A stretch of 59,357 bases of DNA. Source: Tagaea sp. (GTDB lineage Bacteria; Pseudomonadota; Alphaproteobacteria; CACIAM-22H2). The position numbers and the translations under genes are program-made. The notes under the pieces are model-generated. The model was not told where the DNA came from, ran no database searches, and was given only the letters and a program-made list of their open reading frames with translations. This document shows, one piece after another, positions 3,299-56,563 of the stretch (position 1 is the first letter of the stretch; the number at the start of each line of letters is the position of its first letter). Location of the stretch: contig JBIKWI010000004.1 in NCBI GenBank assembly GCA_044356395.1, positions 1 to 59,357 of the forward strand. Direction: 5' to 3'.

Positions 3299-4931
<1,633 letters not shown>

Positions 4932-4935
<4 letters not shown>

Positions 4936-5861
4936 AGCTGCTGTTCATCTCCTCGACCGACCGCGTCGAACCCTGGCGCGCCGCCTTCGCCGAACACGCA
5001 CCCGACATCGAGTTCGTCTCGTTTCCCGACGTGGGCGATCCCGCCTCGATCGAGTTCGCGGCCGTCTGGAAGTATCCGCCGGGGACGCTCCGGAAGTTCC
5101 CCAACCTCAAGCTCGTCTCGTCGCTCGGAGCCGGCATCGACCACCTGCTCGGCGATCCGGAGTTTCCGGCGCATCTCCCGTTCGTGCGGCTCGTCGATCC
5201 GACACTGACGTCCGGCATGGTCGAGTACGCGCTGTGGGCCACGCTGCGCTATCACCGCCAGATGGTCGAGTACGACGCCTTCCAGCGCGCGGGCGAGTGG
5301 CACCCGATGCCGGCGCCGTCGACCGCCGCCCGGCGCGTCGGCATCGCCGGGATCGGCGAGATTGGCGGAGCCATCGCCCGGGCGATCGCAGGTCTGGGCT
5401 TCGACGTCGCCGGCTGGTCACGCGGCGGGCATACAATTCCAGGGGTCGCGTCCTTCGCGGGCGCCGCGGGCTGGCAGCCTTTCCTGGCGCGCACCGACAT
5501 CCTGATATGCGTCCTTCCGCTGACCGACGCGACCCGCGGCATCCTCGACGCCCGCGCCTTTGCCGCGATGCCGAAGGGCGCCTATGTCGTCAACATCGCC
5601 CGGGGCGGCCATGTCGTGGACGGCGACCTGCTATCGGCCCTCGACAGCGGCCATCTGACGCATGCCACGCTCGACGTGACCTCGCCCGAGCCGCTGCCGG
5701 CCGGGCACCCCTATTGGGGCCACCCGCGCGTCACGCTGACCCCGCATATCGCCAGCTTGACCGACCCCCGCACGGCCGTCCCGCAGGTCGTCGACAATAT
5801 TCGCCGTTTCATTGCCGGCCGGCCGCTGGTCAACCGCGTCGACCGGGCCAACGGCTATTGA
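4932..5861 (+). CDS. ghrA: Glyoxylate/hydroxypyruvate reductase A (D-2-hydroxyacid dehydrogenase)
   Basis: GTG overlaps the yejF stop. Motifs SLGAGIDH, GIAGIGEIG, NIARGGHV, LDVTSPEPL and TPHIAS. Confidence 0.8.
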
Positions 5862-5882
5862 ACGGGTCCCGGCGGCGCGGCA

Positions 5883-5911
5883 TTGTACCCGGGCAAAAAG
5901 GGGGCTATATC
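5883..5911 (+). promoter_or_regulatory. Putative sigma70 promoter TTGTAC-N17-TATATC for the 329-aa hypothetical gene
   Basis: -35/-10-like hexamers with 17-nt spacing about 30 nt upstream of the ATG. GGAGA Shine-Dalgarno-like sequence follows. Confidence 0.5.
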
Positions 5912-5942
5912 CTCGTCGTAGCGGAGAAAATCGACAGTCCTG

Positions 5943-6932
5943 ATGTCTGAGGCCAAAGCAAAAGCGGAAGTTCCGAGCGAGCTTCCTCCACCCAAGAAAG
6001 CCGACAAGTCGAAGACGTTTTCCTTCGACCACGCGGTCTTCCAGGTGAAGGGGGCCTATTTCGGATTCGGCAAGGACGGCGATTCGGTCTGCCTGCATGT
6101 GCCGCTGGGCGACATCATGGCCGCCCTGCCGATCGAAGCGGTCAAGGTCCAGTTCCAGATCCCCAAGGACAGCGAAGACGCCAAGCTTCTCGACATCGCC
6201 GAGAAGTCGATGAAGTTCGTCAAGCGCATCCTGCCCGGCGACTGCATCCCGGCCGAGATCCTGGACGGAACGGCCTCGTGGCGCGTCGAACCGCACCATA
6301 TCGCGCGCGCCAACGCGCGCATCTCGATGCAGATCATCAGCTGGATGTCGGGAAAACCGGTCGAGGTTTCGGATACTTCCGAACTCGAAGGCCTTGCCAA
6401 CAATCCCGAGACCAAAAAGAAGATCCAGGAAGCCTTCGAGCTTCTGGCCGAGAAGCTCGGTCTGGGACGCGCCAACAAGAACCAGATCGTCGAGATGATC
6501 GAGCAGCTCGCGCGCGAGACATCCTATATCGAGGCGCTGCGCGAGCGTTTCCAGAAGATCCAGAAGATCTACGGCGGCTTCAACGTGCTGTTCGCGGCCT
6601 ACAAGCGCGAGCGCGGCGTGCAGGACGAGGTCGGCCGCATCCGCATTCTGATGAAGAAGCCGGTCGAGGACATTTCCGGCATCTTCCTGCAGATCGACGC
6701 CAACACGGGCGAAGTCTTCAACGCGCTGAAGCGCCTGCGCGAGACGATCAGCTACATCCGCTCGAAACGCGACGAGCTGCACCAGCGCTTCATGCTGTGG
6801 GACGAGATCCTCGTCGCGTGGGAGGGCGTGCCTCTCGAGCGCGACGGGCGCATGGACAAGCTCGTGCGTATCACCTACCGCTTCATTGCCCGCCACTTCC
6901 CGCAGGATTCGGAGTGGAGCCTGACGCGCTGA
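5943..6932 (+). CDS. Hypothetical protein (329 aa), soluble, helical C-terminal half
   Basis: Long ORF with normal globular composition, strong GC3 bias and its own promoter-like sequence. No recognised motif. Confidence 0.8.
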   Translation: MSEAKAKAEVPSELPPPKKADKSKTFSFDHAVFQVKGAYFGFGKDGDSVCLHVPLGDIMAALPIEAVKVQFQIPKDSEDAKLLDIAEKSMKFVKRILPGDCIPAEILDGTASWRVEPHHIARANARISMQIISWMSGKPVEVSDTSELEGLANNPETKKKIQEAFELLAEKLGLGRANKNQIVEMIEQLARETSYIEALRERFQKIQKIYGGFNVLFAAYKRERGVQDEVGRIRILMKKPVEDISGIFLQIDANTGEVFNALKRLRETISYIRSKRDELHQRFMLWDEILVAWEGVPLERDGRMDKLVRITYRFIARHFPQDSEWSLTR

Positions 6933-6937
6933 GGCGC
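6892..6937 (+). repeat. 46-bp direct repeat, copy 1 (3' end of the 329-aa gene including its stop)
   Basis: gccacttcccgcaggattcggagtggagcctgacgcgctgaggcgc matches 7539-7584 at 43 of 46 positions. Confidence 0.9.
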
Positions 6938-42884: not shown

Positions 42885-42974
42885 GGACAGGTGGCCGAGT
42901 GGCTGAAGGCGTCAGTCTCGAAAACTGAAATACCGGCAACGGTATCGTGAGTTCGAATCTCACCCTGTCCGCCA
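42885..42974 (+). tRNA. tRNA-Ser(CGA)
   Basis: GGACAGG/CCTGTCC acceptor stem with encoded GCCA end, anticodon arm TCAGT-CT-CGA-AA-ACTGA, long variable arm and GTTCGAATC T-loop. Confidence 0.97.

Positions 42975-49603: not shown

Positions 49604-49607
<4 letters not shown>
48903..49607 (+). CDS. DUF1028 family (Ntn-hydrolase-like) protein
   Basis: MTWSVVARD with N-terminal Thr nucleophile candidate, [24 protein letters not shown] and DMRVDDH. Confidence 0.85.
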
Positions 49608-50583
<976 letters not shown>

Positions 50584-50587
<4 letters not shown>

Positions 50588-51654
50588 CGAAGCCGCTGCT
50601 GCGCGCTTTCGATCTCGTGAAGCACTTCCCCGTGCGCAAGGGCCTGTTCGGGCGCGCGACGGGCATGGTCAAGGCGGTCGACGGCGTGTCGCTCGACGTC
50701 GCCGCCGGCGAAACGCTGGGGCTGGTGGGCGAAAGCGGCTGCGGCAAGTCGACGGTGGGGCGCATGCTGCTGCGCCTGATCGAACCTACCTCCGGCCGGA
50801 TCGAGTTCGACGGCACAGACCTGATGGCGCTCGACGAGGCCGCGATGCGCGCCCAGCGCCGGCACCTGCAGATCGTCTTCCAGGATCCCTACGCCTCGCT
50901 CAATCCGCGCATGACGGTGGGCCAGATCGTCGGCGAGCCGCTGATGCTGCACGGGCTTGCAAGCGGGGCCGCGCGGATCGACAAGGTGCGCGAGCTGCTG
51001 TCGGTCGTGGGCCTGCGCCCGGAGCACGACCGGCGCTATCCGCACGAGTTCTCGGGCGGGCAGCGCCAGCGCATCGGGATCGCGCGCGCCCTTGCCGCCG
51101 GACCCAAGCTGATCGTCGGCGACGAGCCGGTCTCGGCCCTCGACGTGTCGGTGCAGGCGCAGGTGCTGAACCTGCTTAAAGACCTTCAGGCGAAATTCGG
51201 CATGGCGCTCGTGCTGATCGCGCACGATCTTGCCGTGGTCAAGCATGCGGCCGACCGCGTGGCCGTGATGTATCTCGGGCGCATCGTCGAGATCGCGGAC
51301 AAGGGCGGCCTTTACGTGCGGCCGCGCCATCCCTATACGCAGGCGCTGCTCGCCGCGATCCCGGTGCCCGATCCGTCGGTCGCGCGCGCGCGCACGCTGC
51401 TGCAGGGCGACGTGCCCAGCCCCATCGATCCGCCGCCCGGCTGCCATTTCCACACGCGGTGCGCGTTCGCCAAGGACCGCTGCCGCACGCAAAGCCCGCG
51501 GCTCGAACCCGCCGGTGCGGGCCATTCGGTCGCCTGCCATTTCTGGCGCGACATCCCCGACTTCGCCGCACTTTCCATCCCGCCGGACAGCCCCGCACAG
51601 GCCCGCCTCGAGCGGCTGCAGGGCCGCTTCGTCGAACGCACCGTCCATTCCTGA
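50584..51654 (+). CDS. Dipeptide/oligopeptide ABC transporter ATP-binding protein (DppF-like)
   Basis: [28 protein letters not shown] and GCHFHTRC. Confidence 0.9.
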
Positions 51655-51682
51655 CCCACCCATTCCTGAACCGCGAGGAGAG

Positions 51683-53209
51683 ATGACCATGTCGATCACC
51701 CGAACGCTGATGGCCGGCCTTGCCGCCATCGCCCTGACCGCCGGGGCCGCGCACGCGCAGACCACGCTGCGAATCGGCCTTGCCGAGGACCCCGACGCGC
51801 TCGACCCCACGACCGCGCGCACCTTCGTGGGCCGGATCGTGTTCGCCAGCCTGTGCGACAAGCTTTTCGACATCGACGACAAGCTCAACATCGTCCCCCA
51901 GCTCGCGACCGGCTACAGCTGGGGCGGCGAGGGCAAGGAACTGACGATCAAACTTCGCGACGGCGTGACGTTCCACGACGGCGAGAAGATGGACGCCGAG
52001 GCTGTGCGCTTCAGCCTCGACCGGCACCTCAACATGCAGGGCTCGTTCCGCCGCTCGGAAATCTCGGCGCTGCAGAAGATCGATGTCGTCGACCCGCTGA
52101 CGGTGAAGCTGACGCTGTCGGCACCCTTTGCACCCTTCGTCGCCCAGCTCACCGACCGTGCGGGCATGATCGTCAGCCCGAAGGCGGCACAGGCCGCCGG
52201 CGCTCAGTTCGCTGCCAAGCCCGTGTGCGCGGGCCCGTTCCGCTTCGTCGAGCGCGTGGCGCAGGACCGCATCGTCGTCGAGAAGTTCCCGCAGTACTGG
52301 GATGCCGGCAAGATCGGCGTCGACCGCGTCGTCTACCTTCCGATCCCCGACCATTCGGTGCGCTTCGCCAACCTGCAGGGCAACGCGCTCGACCTGATCG
52401 AACGGCTGCAGCCGACCGACATCCCGGCCGTGCGGCGCAACCAGCGCCTGAAGCTGTCGGCGGTCGAGGAGCTCGGCTACATGGGCATGTGGCTCAACGT
52501 GGCCAACGGCGAGAAGGCGAATTCGCCGATCGGCAAGGACCGGCGCGTGCGCGAGGCGTTCGAACTGGCCATCGACCGCGCCACCATCGTCCAGGTCGTC
52601 TATAACGGCGAATATACGCCGACGGTCCAGGCGATCCCGCCGGCAAGCCCGTTCGCCAACAAGGCGGCGAAGATTCCCGCACGCAACGTCGAACGCGCCA
52701 AGGCGCTGCTGCGCGAGGCCGGCTTCACGGCGCCCGTCGTCGTCAACCTGATGGTCGCCAACAGCCCGGACTTCCGCCAGGTCGGCGAGGTGATCCAGTC
52801 GATGGCGCGCGAGGCAGGCTTCGACGTGCGTATCCAGGCGACCGAGTTCGCCACCTCGCTGAGCACCGCCGAGAAGGGCGACTATGAAGCCTATATCGTC
52901 GGCTGGTCGGGCCGTCCCGATCCGGACGGCAACCTGTTCAGCTTCGTCACGTCGCGCGGGCCGCTCAACTACGCCAAGTTCGCCTCGCCCGAGGTCGACA
53001 AGCTGATGGCCGACGCGCGGATCGTGCCGGACGTGGCGCAGCGCACCGCGCTCTACACGAAGGCGGCCGACCTGGTCCAGGCGGAGAAGCCGATTCTCTA
53101 TCTGTGGCACCGCAAGAACCTGGTCGCGCACACCGCCCGGGTCTCCGGCTTCGTCGCGGTTCCCGACGGGCTGATCCGCCTGCAGGGCATCCGCCTCGCG
53201 GCGAACTGA
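51683..53209 (+). CDS. ABC transporter substrate-binding protein (family 5)
   Basis: GAGGAG SD, signal peptide (AAHA-Q), DPDALDP, LRDGVTFHDG, GPFRF and WSGRPDPD. Confidence 0.9.
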   Translation: MTMSITRTLMAGLAAIALTAGAAHAQTTLRIGLAEDPDALDPTTARTFVGRIVFASLCDKLFDIDDKLNIVPQLATGYSWGGEGKELTIKLRDGVTFHDGEKMDAEAVRFSLDRHLNMQGSFRRSEISALQKIDVVDPLTVKLTLSAPFAPFVAQLTDRAGMIVSPKAAQAAGAQFAAKPVCAGPFRFVERVAQDRIVVEKFPQYWDAGKIGVDRVVYLPIPDHSVRFANLQGNALDLIERLQPTDIPAVRRNQRLKLSAVEELGYMGMWLNVANGEKANSPIGKDRRVREAFELAIDRATIVQVVYNGEYTPTVQAIPPASPFANKAAKIPARNVERAKALLREAGFTAPVVVNLMVANSPDFRQVGEVIQSMAREAGFDVRIQATEFATSLSTAEKGDYEAYIVGWSGRPDPDGNLFSFVTSRGPLNYAKFASPEVDKLMADARIVPDVAQRTALYTKAADLVQAEKPILYLWHRKNLVAHTARVSGFVAVPDGLIRLQGIRLAAN

Positions 53210-53231
53210 CGTACGGGAAGGAAGCGCCGCC

Positions 53232-54176
53232 TTGTTCACGTTTCTCGCCCGCCGACTCTCGAGCATCCTGCCGACGCTGTTCGTCGTCTCGATGCTCGTG
53301 TTCGGGCTGCAATTGCTGCTGCCGGGCGATCCCGCCTCGGTCATGGCGGGCGAGGAACGCGACGAGGAGGTGCTGGCCCAGATCCGCGCGCGCTACGGTC
53401 TCGACCGGCCGATTCCGGTCCAGTACGCCAACTGGCTGTGGAACGTGCTACATGGCGACCTTGGCGAATCGATGCGGCTGTCGAGCCCGGTCTCCGATCT
53501 GGTCCTCGCCAAGCTGCCGGTCACGCTGCAACTCGGCGGCATGGCCTTTATCATCGCGTGCCTGATCGGCATCCCGATGGGCGTGCTGTCGGCCGTGCGC
53601 AAGGACGGGTTCTGGGACTATGCGGCGAACGCGGTGGCCCTGTGGGGGTTGTCGACGCCGAATTTCTGGCTCGGGATCCTGCTGATCCTTTTCGTGTCGG
53701 TCGAGATGGGCTGGCTGCCGCCGTCGGGCTATGTGAGCCCGTTTGAGGACTGGCGGCAGAGTCTGGCGACGACGATCATGCCCGCCTTCGTGCTGGGCAA
53801 CTCGATCGCGGCCGTGCTGATGCGCCACACGCGCGCGGCGATGCTGCAGGCGCTCAACCAAGACTATGTGCGAACCGCGCGCGCCAAGGGGCTTTCCGAG
53901 GGCAAGGTCGTCAACAAGCATGCGTTGCGCAACGCGCTGATCCCGGTCGTCACGCTGGGCGCGCTCGAACTGGGCGCGCTGTTTTCGGGTGCCGTGCTCA
54001 CCGAGCAGGTCTTCACGATCCCGGGCTTCGGCAAGCTCGTCGTCGATGCGGTGTTCAACCGCGACTATATGGTCGTGCAGGGCGTGGTGCTGGTGACGGC
54101 CACGGCCTATGTGGCGCTCAACCTGATCGCCGACATCCTCTACTTCCTCATCAATCCGCGCCTGCGCCAGCAATGA
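53232..54176 (+). CDS. ABC transporter permease (DppB-like)
   Basis: LPGDPA, GLDRPIPVQY, GDLGES and QDYVRTARAKG. Confidence 0.9.
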   Translation: MFTFLARRLSSILPTLFVVSMLVFGLQLLLPGDPASVMAGEERDEEVLAQIRARYGLDRPIPVQYANWLWNVLHGDLGESMRLSSPVSDLVLAKLPVTLQLGGMAFIIACLIGIPMGVLSAVRKDGFWDYAANAVALWGLSTPNFWLGILLILFVSVEMGWLPPSGYVSPFEDWRQSLATTIMPAFVLGNSIAAVLMRHTRAAMLQALNQDYVRTARAKGLSEGKVVNKHALRNALIPVVTLGALELGALFSGAVLTEQVFTIPGFGKLVVDAVFNRDYMVVQGVVLVTATAYVALNLIADILYFLINPRLRQQ

Positions 54177-55024
54177 GCGACCTGACCGACAGCCCCGGAC
54201 GGCGGGCGGTCCGCCGCCTGATGCGCCGGCCGGCTGCGGTGTTCGGCCTTGCGGTCGTGCTCGCGTTCGTCGCGATCGCGGTGCTGGCACCCTTTCTTGC
54301 ACCCTTCGATCCGATCGCGACGGACTGGGGGGCGATCCGCAAGCCGCCCGGGGCACTCCACTGGTTCGGCACCGACGAGAACGGGCGCGACCTTGCCTCG
54401 CGCATCGCGTTCGGCGCGCGCGCCTCGCTGCTGGCCGGCGTGGTGTCGGTGTCGATCTCGATCGCGGTGGGACTGCCGCTCGGCCTGCTTGCGGGCTATG
54501 TCGGCGGCTGGGTCGACATGATCATCAGCCGCGTGACCGACGCGATGCTCGCCTGCCCGTTCCTGATCCTGGCGATCGCCCTCGCCGCGTTTCTGGGGCC
54601 CAGCCTTTCGAACGCGATGATCGCCATCGGCATCTCGGCCACGCCCGCCTTCATCCGGCTCACGCGCGGGGCCACGCTCAACGCCGCGGTCGAAGACTAT
54701 GTCGAGGCGGCGCGCGCGGTGGGAAATCCCAAATGGCGCATCGCGGTGCGCCACCTGCTGCCCAATATCCTGCCGCCGATCATGGTGCAGGCCACGCTCG
54801 CCATCGCGGCGGCGATCATCGCGGAGGCGAGCCTGTCGTTCCTGGGCCTGGGCCAGCAGCCGCCGGCCCCCAGCTGGGGATCGATGCTGAACACGGCCCA
54901 GCGGTTCATCGCCCAGGCGCCGTGGATGGCGGTGTTTCCGGGCATGGCGATCTTCCTCGTGGTGCTCGCCTTCAACCTGCTGGGCGACGGCCTGCGCGAC
55001 GCGCTCGACCCGCGCCACCGCTAG
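54173..55024 (+). CDS. ABC transporter permease (DppC-like)
   Basis: HWFGTDENGRD, YVEAARAVG, EASLSFLGLG and GDGLRDALDP. Confidence 0.9.
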   Translation: MSDLTDSPGRRAVRRLMRRPAAVFGLAVVLAFVAIAVLAPFLAPFDPIATDWGAIRKPPGALHWFGTDENGRDLASRIAFGARASLLAGVVSVSISIAVGLPLGLLAGYVGGWVDMIISRVTDAMLACPFLILAIALAAFLGPSLSNAMIAIGISATPAFIRLTRGATLNAAVEDYVEAARAVGNPKWRIAVRHLLPNILPPIMVQATLAIAAAIIAEASLSFLGLGQQPPAPSWGSMLNTAQRFIAQAPWMAVFPGMAIFLVVLAFNLLGDGLRDALDPRHR

Positions 55025-55113
55025 AAATTCTAACGACCGGCACCAGAATTCCTCGATTGCCGCGCGAGGTGGCGGCGACCATGTTCTTGCCGTCGGACGC
55101 GCGAAGCGTCTGG

Positions 55114-55167
55114 CCGCGGCGATTTGATCGAGCAGCTTGCGCCCGCGTCACAAAGCGCTAAAGCGCC
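55114..55167 (+). ncRNA. SAM-II (SAM-alpha) riboswitch
   Basis: ccgcggcGATTTgatcgagcagcTTGCgcccgcgtcacaaagcGCTAAAg: P1 cgcgg/ccgcg, the conserved GAUUU, UUGC and GCUAAA blocks, and pseudoknot pairing of UUU with AAA. Located about 40 nt before an SD and ATG. Confidence 0.8.
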
Positions 55168-55203
55168 ACGGCGGTTGTCGTGGGCTCAAGGATGGAGACC
55201 GAC

Positions 55204-55389
55204 ATGCCGACGAACGACGCCTACGTAATCGAGATCGACGGCGATGCCGCGGGCCTCGCCCTTGGCGAACGCGGCGGCTACCGCTTCGCCGCGACGACCA
55301 CCGCCTACTGGAAGCTGGACGGGCAGCGCTTCCGCGACGTGCGCCAGGCCGAGCGCGCGGCACGTACCCTCAAGGAGCAGACGCGATGA
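55204..55389 (+). CDS. Small hypothetical protein (61 aa)
   Basis: GGAGA SD. The pattern YVIEI…AAGL…GGYRF…LDGQRF…AERAA looks like a folded alphaproteobacterial mini-protein. Its stop overlaps the next ATG. Confidence 0.7.
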   Translation: MPTNDAYVIEIDGDAAGLALGERGGYRFAATTTAYWKLDGQRFRDVRQAERAARTLKEQTR

Positions 55390-56354
55390 GCCAGGTCCAC
55401 GTGATCCACGAGAACGATGCCTGGGTCGAGCCGCTGCGCGCGGCGTTCGACAGCCGCGGCACGCCGTTCGCCGAATGGTTCCTCGACGAGGGCGCCATCG
55501 ACCTGCGCGCCGAACCGCCCGAGGGCGTCTTCTACAACCGCATGAGCGCCTCCTCGCACACGCGCGACCATCGCTATGCGGCCGAGTACACGGGCCACGT
55601 GCTGGAATGGCTCAGCCGGCACGGGCGCACGGTCGTCAACGGCCGGCGTGCGCTGGCGCTGGAGATCAGCAAGGTGGCACAGTACCAGGCGCTCGCCGCG
55701 CACGACATCGCCGTCCCCGACACGATCGCGGCCATCGGCCGGCGGCAGATCGCCAATGCTGCCGAAACGCTGGGCTATCCGCTGATCGTCAAGCACAACC
55801 GGGCCGGCAAGGGGCTTGGCGTGAAGCTGATCCTGAGCGAAGCGGCCTTGAAGGAGTATCTCGCCGACGACGAAGCCATCGGGCCCGTCGACGGCACGTG
55901 GCTGGTGCAGCGCTATGTCGCGGCACCCGAGCCGTTCATCACGCGCGTCGAGTTCGTCGGCGGCAAGTTCCTCTATGCCGTGCGCGTCGACACGTCGGCG
56001 GGCTTCGAGCTGTGCCCGGCCGACCAGTGCCAGATCGATCCCGCCGAAGTGTGCCCGGCGGTGGCGCCGGGTGCCCGCTTCCGCATCGTCGAGAATTTCC
56101 GGCATCCGCTGGTGAAGCGCTATGAGCGCTTCCTCGCCGCCAACGACATCGGCATCGCGGGCATCGAGTTCATCGTCGACCGCGAAGGCAATGCGTTCAC
56201 GTACGACGTCAACACCAACACCAATTACAATCCGGAGGCCGAGGCGCTTGCCGGATTGTCGGGCATGGGGGCCATCGCGGACTACCTCGCCGGGCGGCTC
56301 GACCGGGTTGACCCGAGCCCGCTCTGGCTGTCGGCGATCGGGGCGCCGCACTAG
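55386..56354 (+). CDS. ATP-grasp ligase, RimK/alpha-L-glutamate ligase-like
   Basis: NRMSASSHTR, LEISKVAQY, KHNRAGKGLGV, LVQRYV, TRVEFVGG, GIEF and YDVNTNTNYN. Confidence 0.85.
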   Translation: MSQVHVIHENDAWVEPLRAAFDSRGTPFAEWFLDEGAIDLRAEPPEGVFYNRMSASSHTRDHRYAAEYTGHVLEWLSRHGRTVVNGRRALALEISKVAQYQALAAHDIAVPDTIAAIGRRQIANAAETLGYPLIVKHNRAGKGLGVKLILSEAALKEYLADDEAIGPVDGTWLVQRYVAAPEPFITRVEFVGGKFLYAVRVDTSAGFELCPADQCQIDPAEVCPAVAPGARFRIVENFRHPLVKRYERFLAANDIGIAGIEFIVDREGNAFTYDVNTNTNYNPEAEALAGLSGMGAIADYLAGRLDRVDPSPLWLSAIGAPH

Positions 56355-56359
56355 GGACA

Positions 56360-56413
56360 ACAATAGGTTACAATACGTTACGGTAGCCTATTTAACCTCT
56401 TGATGTACATCAC
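56360..56413. promoter_or_regulatory. Regulatory sites in an AT-rich intergenic region: 10-bp tandem repeat and FNR/FixK-like box
   Basis: ACAATAGGTT-ACAATACGTT-AC at 56360-56381, and TTGAT-GTAC-ATCAC at 56400-56413 (one mismatch to TTGAT-N4-ATCAA). Confidence 0.5.
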
Positions 56414-56563
56414 TTGTTACTGCAACGCGCGCGGTGTAACCAAAACCCAGAAACAAGACGACATCCCTATACTCGGAATATTAATCTAGCATCTGGCGAT
56501 ATAAAATCAAGCCCCGGAAGGTGCTACAATTCTGTCCGGGATTCTCCGGGGGAGCCAGTCCAG

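Follow-up and report, generated by a model that had tools for sequence, protein, structure and literature searches.

Near the end of a 59,357-nucleotide stretch of Tagaea sp. DNA (contig JBIKWI010000004.1; we refer to this whole stretch as the window), an RNA element matching the SAM-II class of S-adenosylmethionine (SAM) riboswitches lies directly upstream of two overlapping genes, which encode a protein of 61 residues and a putative ATP-grasp ligase. The explanation of the locus as a whole that we consider reasonably probable is a SAM-II-headed operon that joins two separate members of the SAM/sulfur regulon, one of them a ligase that is proposed to serve in the scavenging of sulfur amino acids. 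A sequence-only reading of this DNA had proposed the aptamer, two hairpins flanking it, an ATGA overlap that would couple the two genes in translation, and a cysteine-rich motif in the ligase. We found all of these elements where it had placed them, and both an Rfam match and conservation in eight genomes support the prediction that an aptamer of the SAM-II family heads a translationally coupled two-gene unit. The parts of this unit are as follows.

55092..55114, forward strand: 5' hairpin of 9 base pairs that abuts helix P1 of the aptamer (minimum free energy (MFE) fold and comparison of eight sequences)
55106..55181, forward strand: SAM-II aptamer match, Rfam SAM_alpha, RF00521 (covariance model)
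55136..55190, forward strand: candidate switching helix (MFE and centroid folds)
55166..55183, forward strand: hairpin of 7 base pairs, CCACGGC / GUCGUGG with loop GGUU, directly 3' of the aptamer, with no U-run behind it
55194..55197, forward strand: Shine-Dalgarno sequence GGAG, 6 nucleotides (nt) ahead of the ATG at 55204, invariant in eight genomes
55204..55389, forward strand: gene for the 61-residue protein (61 codons; open reading frame (ORF))
55386..56354, forward strand: gene for the ATP-grasp ligase, 322 residues (ORF and weak Pfam matches)
56004..56057, forward strand: Cys3 insert of the ligase, FELCPADQCQIDPAEVCP, residues 207-224 with C210, C215 and C223 (motif)

A cmscan search of the whole window matched SAM_alpha at 55106-55181 on the forward strand over the full model (positions 1-79), with 37.1 bits where the gathering score is 36 (E = 8.8e-05), and none of the 4227 Rfam families gave a better match to these positions. 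The P1 helix pairs 55115-55119 with 55143-55147. Three consensus blocks, i.e., loop L1 (GAUUUGA, 55121-55127), GCUUGC (55135-55140) and CGCUAAAG (55156-55163), are intact, and their alignment with the consensus has posterior '*'. On visual inspection, GC(A)GCUU could pair with AAGCGC, as in an H-type pseudoknot or triplex between the loop and the 3' strand. These positions are invariant, and the pseudoknot is not scored by the Rfam model.

Each of the 21 genomes of the genus that we searched contains one SAM_alpha match of 52-71 bits, which we call the canonical copy, and eight of them contain a second, weaker match of 22.9-40.1 bits that always lies at the ATP-grasp locus. In genomes with this second element, the canonical copy scores 66.7-71.2 bits. 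The whole-genome search of the window's genome gave two matches only, the one described here and one of 68.7 bits on another contig. Orthologous elements of the relatives score over the cut-off in three cases (40.1, 36.8 and 36.5 bits) and under it in the others (32.4, 27.9, 27.1 and 22.9 bits). The gene downstream of the canonical copy was looked at in the window's genome; there the copy (contig C20, L031:1501-1580, minus strand) stands ahead of a gene for a MetZ-type pyridoxal-phosphate enzyme, with a hairpin and a U-run between aptamer and start codon and a divergent tRNA gene about 90 nt away.

In an alignment of the eight genomes, 62 of 76 aptamer columns (82%) are invariant, whereas the 5' flank has 5 invariant columns of 27 and the small ORF 109 of 174 (63%), and because of this difference we dismiss a chance match. 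From P1 through the 3' hairpin, 60 of 69 columns do not vary among the eight leaders. Five of the six P1 pairs form in all eight sequences, and the sixth forms in none. The 5' hairpin, which is part of the MFE fold, is 97% paired across the eight sequences, with compensatory changes at three of its nine pairs, while the 3' hairpin is 100% paired and is invariant but for one G-U pair that is A-U in relatives. We conclude from these comparisons that the element is probably a selectively maintained, divergent paralogue of SAM-II.

The ligase has orthologues in 9 of the 20 other genomes of the genus, or in 10 genomes with that of the window, and it is accompanied by the riboswitch and the small ORF in 8 of these 10. 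The sister genomes G012 and G019 have lost the riboswitch and the small ORF and kept the ligase, such that the last ~25 nt before the ligase start remain and the ligase lies directly behind an operon for a peptide-type ATP-binding cassette (ABC) importer. Two genomes of other genera in the same family likewise have the ligase with neither riboswitch nor small ORF. When 91 ligase loci were searched with a regular expression for the SAM-II core, the core was found in front of the ligase only within the genus, and in none of 80 loci outside it. The trio of riboswitch, small protein and ligase is genus-specific. Among the loci examined, the linkage of all three parts is confined to eight genomes of one genus, and the idea of a more widely conserved module is not supported. 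One SAM-II core pattern in a Casimicrobiaceae contig (L092:11164-11205, minus strand) is 5 kb from the ligase and presumably belongs to another gene's leader. Five matches to a loose SAM-II pattern in L069, L086 and L103 were discarded, as they lay off the ligase leader or on the opposite strand.

The small ORF is under purifying selection: the ratio of nonsynonymous to synonymous polymorphism (pN/pS) is 0.00-0.39 over 28 pairs, and variable columns are distributed 9/8/28 by codon position. Judged by this pattern, the ORF is evidently a real gene. A word-indexed search returned five close relatives of its product, all in the genus, and a profile search of 1.84 billion representatives returned 571 distant relatives at E ≤ 0.001, of which 37 are at ≤ 1e-10. 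All of these matches are small proteins, except one of 4597 residues. Neither Pfam nor NCBIfam has a match for the 61-residue protein. Faint DUF1416 matches in 5 of 29 family members (best E 0.029) and unnamed clusters in the ESM Atlas at 0.89-0.90 are leads only. The predicted structure has three strands and two helices (predicted local distance difference test (pLDDT) 89.7), with no Foldseek match in the PDB at E ≤ 0.001 and a best Z of 4.8 in a wide VIA-align comparison, which is under the meaningful level.

Members of the small-protein family occur in 24 of 301 sampled genomes of the class, and we inspected 25 loci of distant relatives; both counts include one unpublished genome (G467, locus L163), on which none of the individual statements made here depends. 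Several neighbours of these genes are related to sulfur: MetN-like ATPases with a NIL domain (L145 and L150), a MetY-type enzyme (L146), a sulfate-binding protein scoring over its cut-off (L155), a taurine-type ABC ATPase (L154) and an NMT1-type binding protein (L157). Rfam detected no riboswitch in the 20 small-protein loci scanned; one sub-threshold match to a small RNA was disregarded.

It has been suggested, in the sequence-only reading, that the small protein could be the substrate, a LysW-like amino-group carrier or an accessory subunit of the ligase, and thus that the two proteins form a functional pair. We regard this as unlikely. Such a pair would be in keeping with the maintenance of both genes together in eight genomes, with translational coupling (by ATGA overlap at 55386-55389 in the window and also in G013, and across a 14-nt gap with its own Shine-Dalgarno sequence in six others), and with the presence, among the nearest solved folds of the ligase, of ArgX and LysX, two enzymes that work on the small carrier LysW. 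However, the close relatives of the small protein number five and are confined to the genus, while the ligase family is very large; the sister genomes G012 and G019 deleted the small ORF and kept the ligase; and the ligase is found at none of the 25 loci of distant small-protein relatives. Carriers of the LysW type have the cysteines of a zinc ribbon and a conserved acidic C-terminal tail that ends in glutamate. The 61-residue protein has no cysteine, no zinc ribbon and no acidic tail, and its last 8-12 residues, which vary in length and sequence among 10 relatives, are its least conserved part. The variable, cysteine-free C-terminus speaks against a LysW-like role, which we regard as not supported. 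Most likely the small protein and the ligase are separate members of a regulon, and not a carrier and its ligase.

The ligase itself matches two Pfam families slightly over their cut-offs, Dala_Dala_lig_C with 25.9 bits (cut-off 24) and RimK with 21.1 bits (cut-off 21), and is under all curated cut-offs of NCBIfam, e.g., RimK TIGR00768 (56 against 143.4 bits) and LysX TIGR02144 (50.4 against 275.6). Its AF2 model has a pLDDT of 80.6, and Foldseek places it nearest to ArgX/LysX, RimK and Ddl, with E-values down to 4e-16 for ArgX, RimK and Ddl, template-modelling (TM) scores of 0.6-0.72 and 14-20% identity; the family has no close solved structure. Residues K136, K142, E261, D274 and N276 are invariant in the relatives compared, and we take them, from what is known of the superfamily, to have the usual ATP-grasp (Mg-ATP) roles. 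By fold and signature residues, the predicted enzyme can be placed in the ATP-grasp superfamily. Some relatives are recorded under the name of glutathione synthetase GshB, a candidate that we rejected because neither GSH-S_ATP nor GSH-S_N is among the Pfam matches at E ≤ 0.01.

The cysteine-rich insert that had been noticed earlier is present. All 20 relatives compared share its three cysteines, as do all 9 sequences of a set drawn from Alpha- and Betaproteobacteria, Acidobacteria and Bacilli. The motifs GFELCPADxC...CP, NRMSASSHTR and YDVNTNTNYN are likewise invariant across phyla, and residues 214-227 of the model have a pLDDT below 50. The family is very large, with at least 8000 candidates in a word-indexed search, the top 120 of which are all at least 69% identical, and with at least 585 relatives in species-representative genomes. 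The best 80 of these 585 or more relatives belong to Alpha- and Betaproteobacteria, Vicinamibacterales and Firmicutes with 57-88% identity, and the two above 73% are loci of the genus. Moreover, 100 of 401 sampled genomes of the class of Parageobacillus (Bacilli) have the ligase at E ≤ 1e-40. A family that retains 57-73% identity across phyla is unusually conserved.

The neighbours of the ligase, which we called using a rough custom gene caller, are not conserved, and in the other lineages examined the gene stands alone among variable neighbours. The following associations were seen. A gene of the metY type ends 8 nt upstream of the ligase in another genus of the same family (L011; TIGR01326, 627.6 bits against a cut-off of 495.1). 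An M20 peptidase gene is directly upstream in four loci (L071, L105, L112 and L113), components of peptide-type ABC importers are within four genes of the ligase in 10 of 80 loci outside the genus, and genes of the MR/MLE enolase superfamily are near it in four. In two Casimicrobiaceae loci (L090:7077-7577 and L096:7018-7584), the ligase lies between a peptide-type ABC permease gene and a gene of the GFA family (glutathione-dependent formaldehyde-activating-like).

In the Bacilli loci L111, L115, L130 and L133, an S-box riboswitch (SAM-I, RF00162), with 64, 82.1, 87.5 and 86.8 bits, respectively, all over the Rfam gathering score, is followed by a gene for a luciferase-like monooxygenase and then, after 1-20 nt, by the ligase; the two-gene operon of L111 spans 4772-6936. 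These are 4 of the 32 distinct Firmicute (Bacilli) ligase loci that were scanned. Since 1.5 kb of upstream DNA was covered in 28 of the 32, this count is a lower bound. The monooxygenase gene is directly upstream of the ligase in 6 of 30 Bacilli loci; in two of these pairs (L123 and L141) there is no S-box in the upstream DNA that was scanned. The best NCBIfam match of the monooxygenase is dimethylsulfone monooxygenase SfnG, with 275 bits, under the cut-off of 383, and alkanesulfonate monooxygenase is next. Two alphaproteobacterial loci, L066 and L079, likewise have a homologue of this monooxygenase next to the ligase. The methionine/sulfur role that the sequence-only reading had assigned to the ligase is thus strengthened, so far as gene context can indicate, by a second riboswitch class in another phylum and by the metY gene directly upstream in one relative. 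We found no literature that links SAM riboswitches to this ligase family, although older work on Gram-positive regulons may list the S-box operon.

Another explanation is that the riboswitch serves the small protein or the leader only and that the ligase is a passenger, e.g., in general peptide or cell-envelope chemistry, in which case the S-box of Bacilli would serve the monooxygenase. The very heterogeneous neighbours of the ligase are as this explanation would have them, as are its riboswitch-free contexts in most lineages and its position directly behind the peptide ABC operon in G012 and G019. On the other hand, mutually unrelated links from distant lineages (SAM-II, S-box, adjacency to metY, and partners of the SfnG-like and M20 types) all lead to sulfur amino acids. 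In addition, genomes have 4-12 S-box elements among a few thousand genes, the latter being a rough estimate that was not measured, and by this estimate 4 of 32 loci is far above random. We therefore think a passenger role distinctly unlikely.

A number of observations weigh against the reading that we prefer, i.e., a SAM-II-headed operon of two sulfur regulon members. The link of the small protein to sulfur comes from 6 of 25 loci, a count that has no formal control and is suggestive. Most neighbours of the ligase are unrelated to sulfur, such as thiolase, PQQ dehydrogenases, TctC and a Na/H exchanger. Of 32 Bacilli loci, 28 have no riboswitch match, with 1.5 kb upstream covered for 28 of the 32, and in 33 proteobacterial and acidobacterial loci outside the genus (15 + 6 + 12), every Rfam family stayed below its cut-off. 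Control of this ligase family by SAM riboswitches is recurrent, but it is a minority state. As to the element, its score exceeds the cut-off by 1.1 bits, and four of the relatives' elements are under it. P1 and the 3' hairpin show no variation across the eight sequences and hence no covariation; because they never vary, they neither support nor oppose the structure.

The expression platform also has to be counted among these observations. Usually, a SAM-II riboswitch sequesters the Shine-Dalgarno sequence within the 3' strand of its pseudoknot. Here, the GGAG at 55194-55197 is not inside that strand; it follows the conserved 3' strand (55156-55166) at a distance of ~27 nt, and the 7-bp hairpin lies in between. 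Positions 55136-55147, which include the 3' strands of P2 and P1, can pair with 55179-55190 to form 11 base pairs with one mismatch in both the MFE and the centroid fold, and this helix would be incompatible with the aptamer as well as with the 3' hairpin. The GGAG is not clearly masked in either modelled state, however, and the MFE fold of 55085-55225 is no more stable than those of shuffled sequences (z -0.26), so the switching helix is a candidate that we infer from folding. The platform is atypical.

This atypical platform, the low scores relative to the canonical copy in every genome of the genus and the sixth P1 pair that never forms might also indicate a decaying or re-purposed SAM-II paralogue that does not bind SAM and is kept for mRNA stability or for another ligand, but we find this improbable, since all strongly conserved consensus blocks are intact, no Rfam family fits better, and the element is more conserved than the neighbouring coding DNA, a fact with which decay does not fit.

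Comparison with the seven relatives (L002 and L005-L010; alignment A4, columns 155-291) indicates how the leader in the window arose. In these relatives, the AUG proximal to the riboswitch opens an upstream ORF (uORF) of 11-14 codons, which is followed by a C-rich spacer, by a covarying GC hairpin with no U-run, and then by the small protein's own Shine-Dalgarno sequence and ATG. The uORF ends in a partly conserved stretch, GCTGTCGAnGCGCCT, that codes for Cys, His or Met. The uORF, spacer and hairpin could be an attenuator coupled to Rho or to translation. The window does not have 109-119 nt that are present in all seven, comprising most of the uORF, the C-rich spacer and the hairpin. Codons 1-3 of its small gene (MPT) are a remnant of the uORF in the ancestral leader, the remaining codons are those of the small-protein gene, and the junction is between 55212 and 55213. 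DNA contigs from two further lake-water runs, which are not marked as possible sources, bridge this junction with 0 differences. Because of these identical contigs, we interpret the fusion as a natural allele and not as an assembly error. The locus offers an example of a leader-uORF architecture that is collapsing by deletion in a natural population.

In the proposed mechanism of the SAM-II-headed operon, a functional, divergent second copy of SAM-II would head a short transcription unit. At high SAM levels, initiation at 55204 would most likely be lowered by the pseudoknot in its folded state together with the 7-bp hairpin next to it, and expression of the ligase would follow that of the small ORF through translational coupling at the ATGA and through polarity. 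When SAM is scarce, both genes would be made. The loss of 109-119 nt would have put the small protein directly on the start codon that the riboswitch controls. The two proteins would be separate members of the SAM/sulfur regulon that the genus has joined in one operon, with the 61-residue protein belonging to an apparently unnamed family whose alphaproteobacterial members lie beside metN-like, metY and sulfate/sulfonate transporter genes. ATP-grasp enzymes use standard acyl-phosphate chemistry. By this chemistry, the ligase would join the carboxylate of an amino acid to the amine of an amino acid or peptide that contains sulfur, as the staphylococcal ligase LdmS does in forming Asp-Met, and would act with the monooxygenase, M20 peptidase and peptide-importer partners in scavenging sulfur amino acids.

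A more specific version of this reading is possible, although we advance it tentatively and would sooner doubt it than rely on it. The Cys3 ATP-grasp enzyme may be the ligase that is missing from a pathway, SAM-regulated and as yet undescribed, by which both Bacilli and Proteobacteria would scavenge sulfur amino acids or organosulfur compounds. In this pathway, an amino-acyl handle or protecting group would be ligated to a sulfur compound, the SfnG-like monooxygenase would work the C-S or S-O chemistry, and the M20 peptidase would remove the handle; the small protein would be a further component of the response to sulfur starvation. Few computational clues to what an unknown gene does are as reliable as its membership in a riboswitch regulon, and here two unrelated classes of SAM riboswitch, in two phyla, point to one uncharacterised family of enzymes. 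The locus thus offers a concrete starting point for the enzymology of this family, and it would extend the SAM-II regulon beyond genes of methionine biosynthesis.

Upstream of the unit, the window contains the following features.

49604..55024, forward strand: peptide-type ABC importer, consisting of two ATPases, a family-5 binding protein and two permeases
55057..55078, forward strand: terminator-like hairpin after the peptide-type ABC permease gene (pattern scan)

The best match of the importer's binding protein is GsiB-like, with 207 bits, well under the cut-off of 594. The terminator-like hairpin behind the permease gene suggests that the riboswitch unit is a transcript separate from the importer operon; the pattern scan gave this one site where 1.0 would be expected by chance, which makes it weak evidence. 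A scan for sigma-70 promoters found none. Contigs from RNA libraries (X21 and X22) cover parts of the ligase gene only, with ~92-96% identity; their source is a relative, and they may represent carried-over DNA. Some of the stretch has no RNA coverage, a gap from which we conclude nothing. One contig of 196 nt from the plankton RNA library X22, which corresponds to 55279-55474 of the window and comes from a relative with 15 differences, runs from the last part of the small ORF into the first part of the ligase gene, and this single contig is a weak hint that the two genes are co-transcribed. Behind the ligase, the intergenic stretch 56355-56560 is strikingly A+T-rich for a high-G+C genome, and it is followed from 56564 to the end of the window by the gene for a large protein with TPR and CHAT domains. 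Of the 11 genus loci that extend past the ligase, 10 have this protein behind it. Elsewhere in the window is an ordinary tRNA gene with a long variable arm (42885-42971, 61.3 bits).

In comparison to known systems, the element resembles SAM-II (RF00521) from the leaders of alphaproteobacterial metA, metX, metY and metZ in that it matches over its full length and its L1, P2 and 3'-strand blocks are conserved. It differs from canonical SAM-II in scoring ~30 bits lower than the canonical copy of the same genome, in having its Shine-Dalgarno sequence ~27 nt beyond the aptamer, in its extra 5' hairpin, and in that the genes downstream are not genes of methionine biosynthesis. In those parts of the published reconstruction that were available to us, the SAM_alpha regulon consists of metY, hom, metA, metX, metC and metW only, and SAM_alpha is absent from the nine Rhodospirillales genomes that were included (PMC4239095). 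The riboswitch family is known, and its cargo here is new relative to that regulon as given in the same parts of the source (PMC4239095).

With respect to the leader, the nearest precedent is the metA SAM-II riboswitch of Sinorhizobium meliloti, in which, according to the available sections of its description, the Shine-Dalgarno sequence is sequestered in the 3' strand of the pseudoknot, and a first start codon (AUG1) is followed by a terminator and then by AUG2, an arrangement called 'translation at a distance' (PMC9373788). Our seven relatives are similar to this description in that their proximal AUG begins a short frame, behind which come a hairpin and, 109-119 nt further on, a second start. 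They are unlike it in that AUG1 opens a separate uORF of 11-14 codons that ends in a stop, and in that the hairpin has no U-run; in the window, the stretch between AUG1 and AUG2 is deleted.

The ligase is like RimK, LysX and ArgX in its fold, these giving the best fold matches (TM 0.64-0.72), and in its best, albeit sub-threshold, family matches (TIGR00768, 56 bits; LysX, 50 bits). It is unlike them in its low identity of 14-20%, and it has no LysW-like partner and no evident target of the S6 type. The closest functional precedent is LdmS, an ATP-grasp L-aspartate-L-methionine ligase that is under the control of sulfur amino acids, is encoded in the hmrA/ldmS operon of Staphylococcaceae and makes Asp-Met (PMC9486568; here and below, as presented in the portions of that paper available to us). 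An M20D peptidase is encoded directly upstream of LdmS, an S-box is upstream in some species, and the key residues are Arg47, Tyr252, Asn255, Arg305, Asn307 and Ser309 (PMC9486568). By sequence, our family was not detectably close to LdmS: no chain named LdmS was among the best 60 PDB sequences at E ≤ 10 in a search with the ligase-family profile, and no direct alignment to LdmS was made. Our ligase family differs from LdmS as described there in its invariant Cys3 insert and in that its commonest enzyme partner in Bacilli is the SfnG-like monooxygenase. It is like LdmS in having an M20 peptidase directly upstream in four loci and an S-box in four. The locus also bears on the question, posed for LdmS, of why methionine-starved cells should switch on a ligase. 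While homologues of LdmS are reported, in those portions, only in Firmicutes (PMC9486568), the present family spans Proteobacteria, Acidobacteria and Bacilli.

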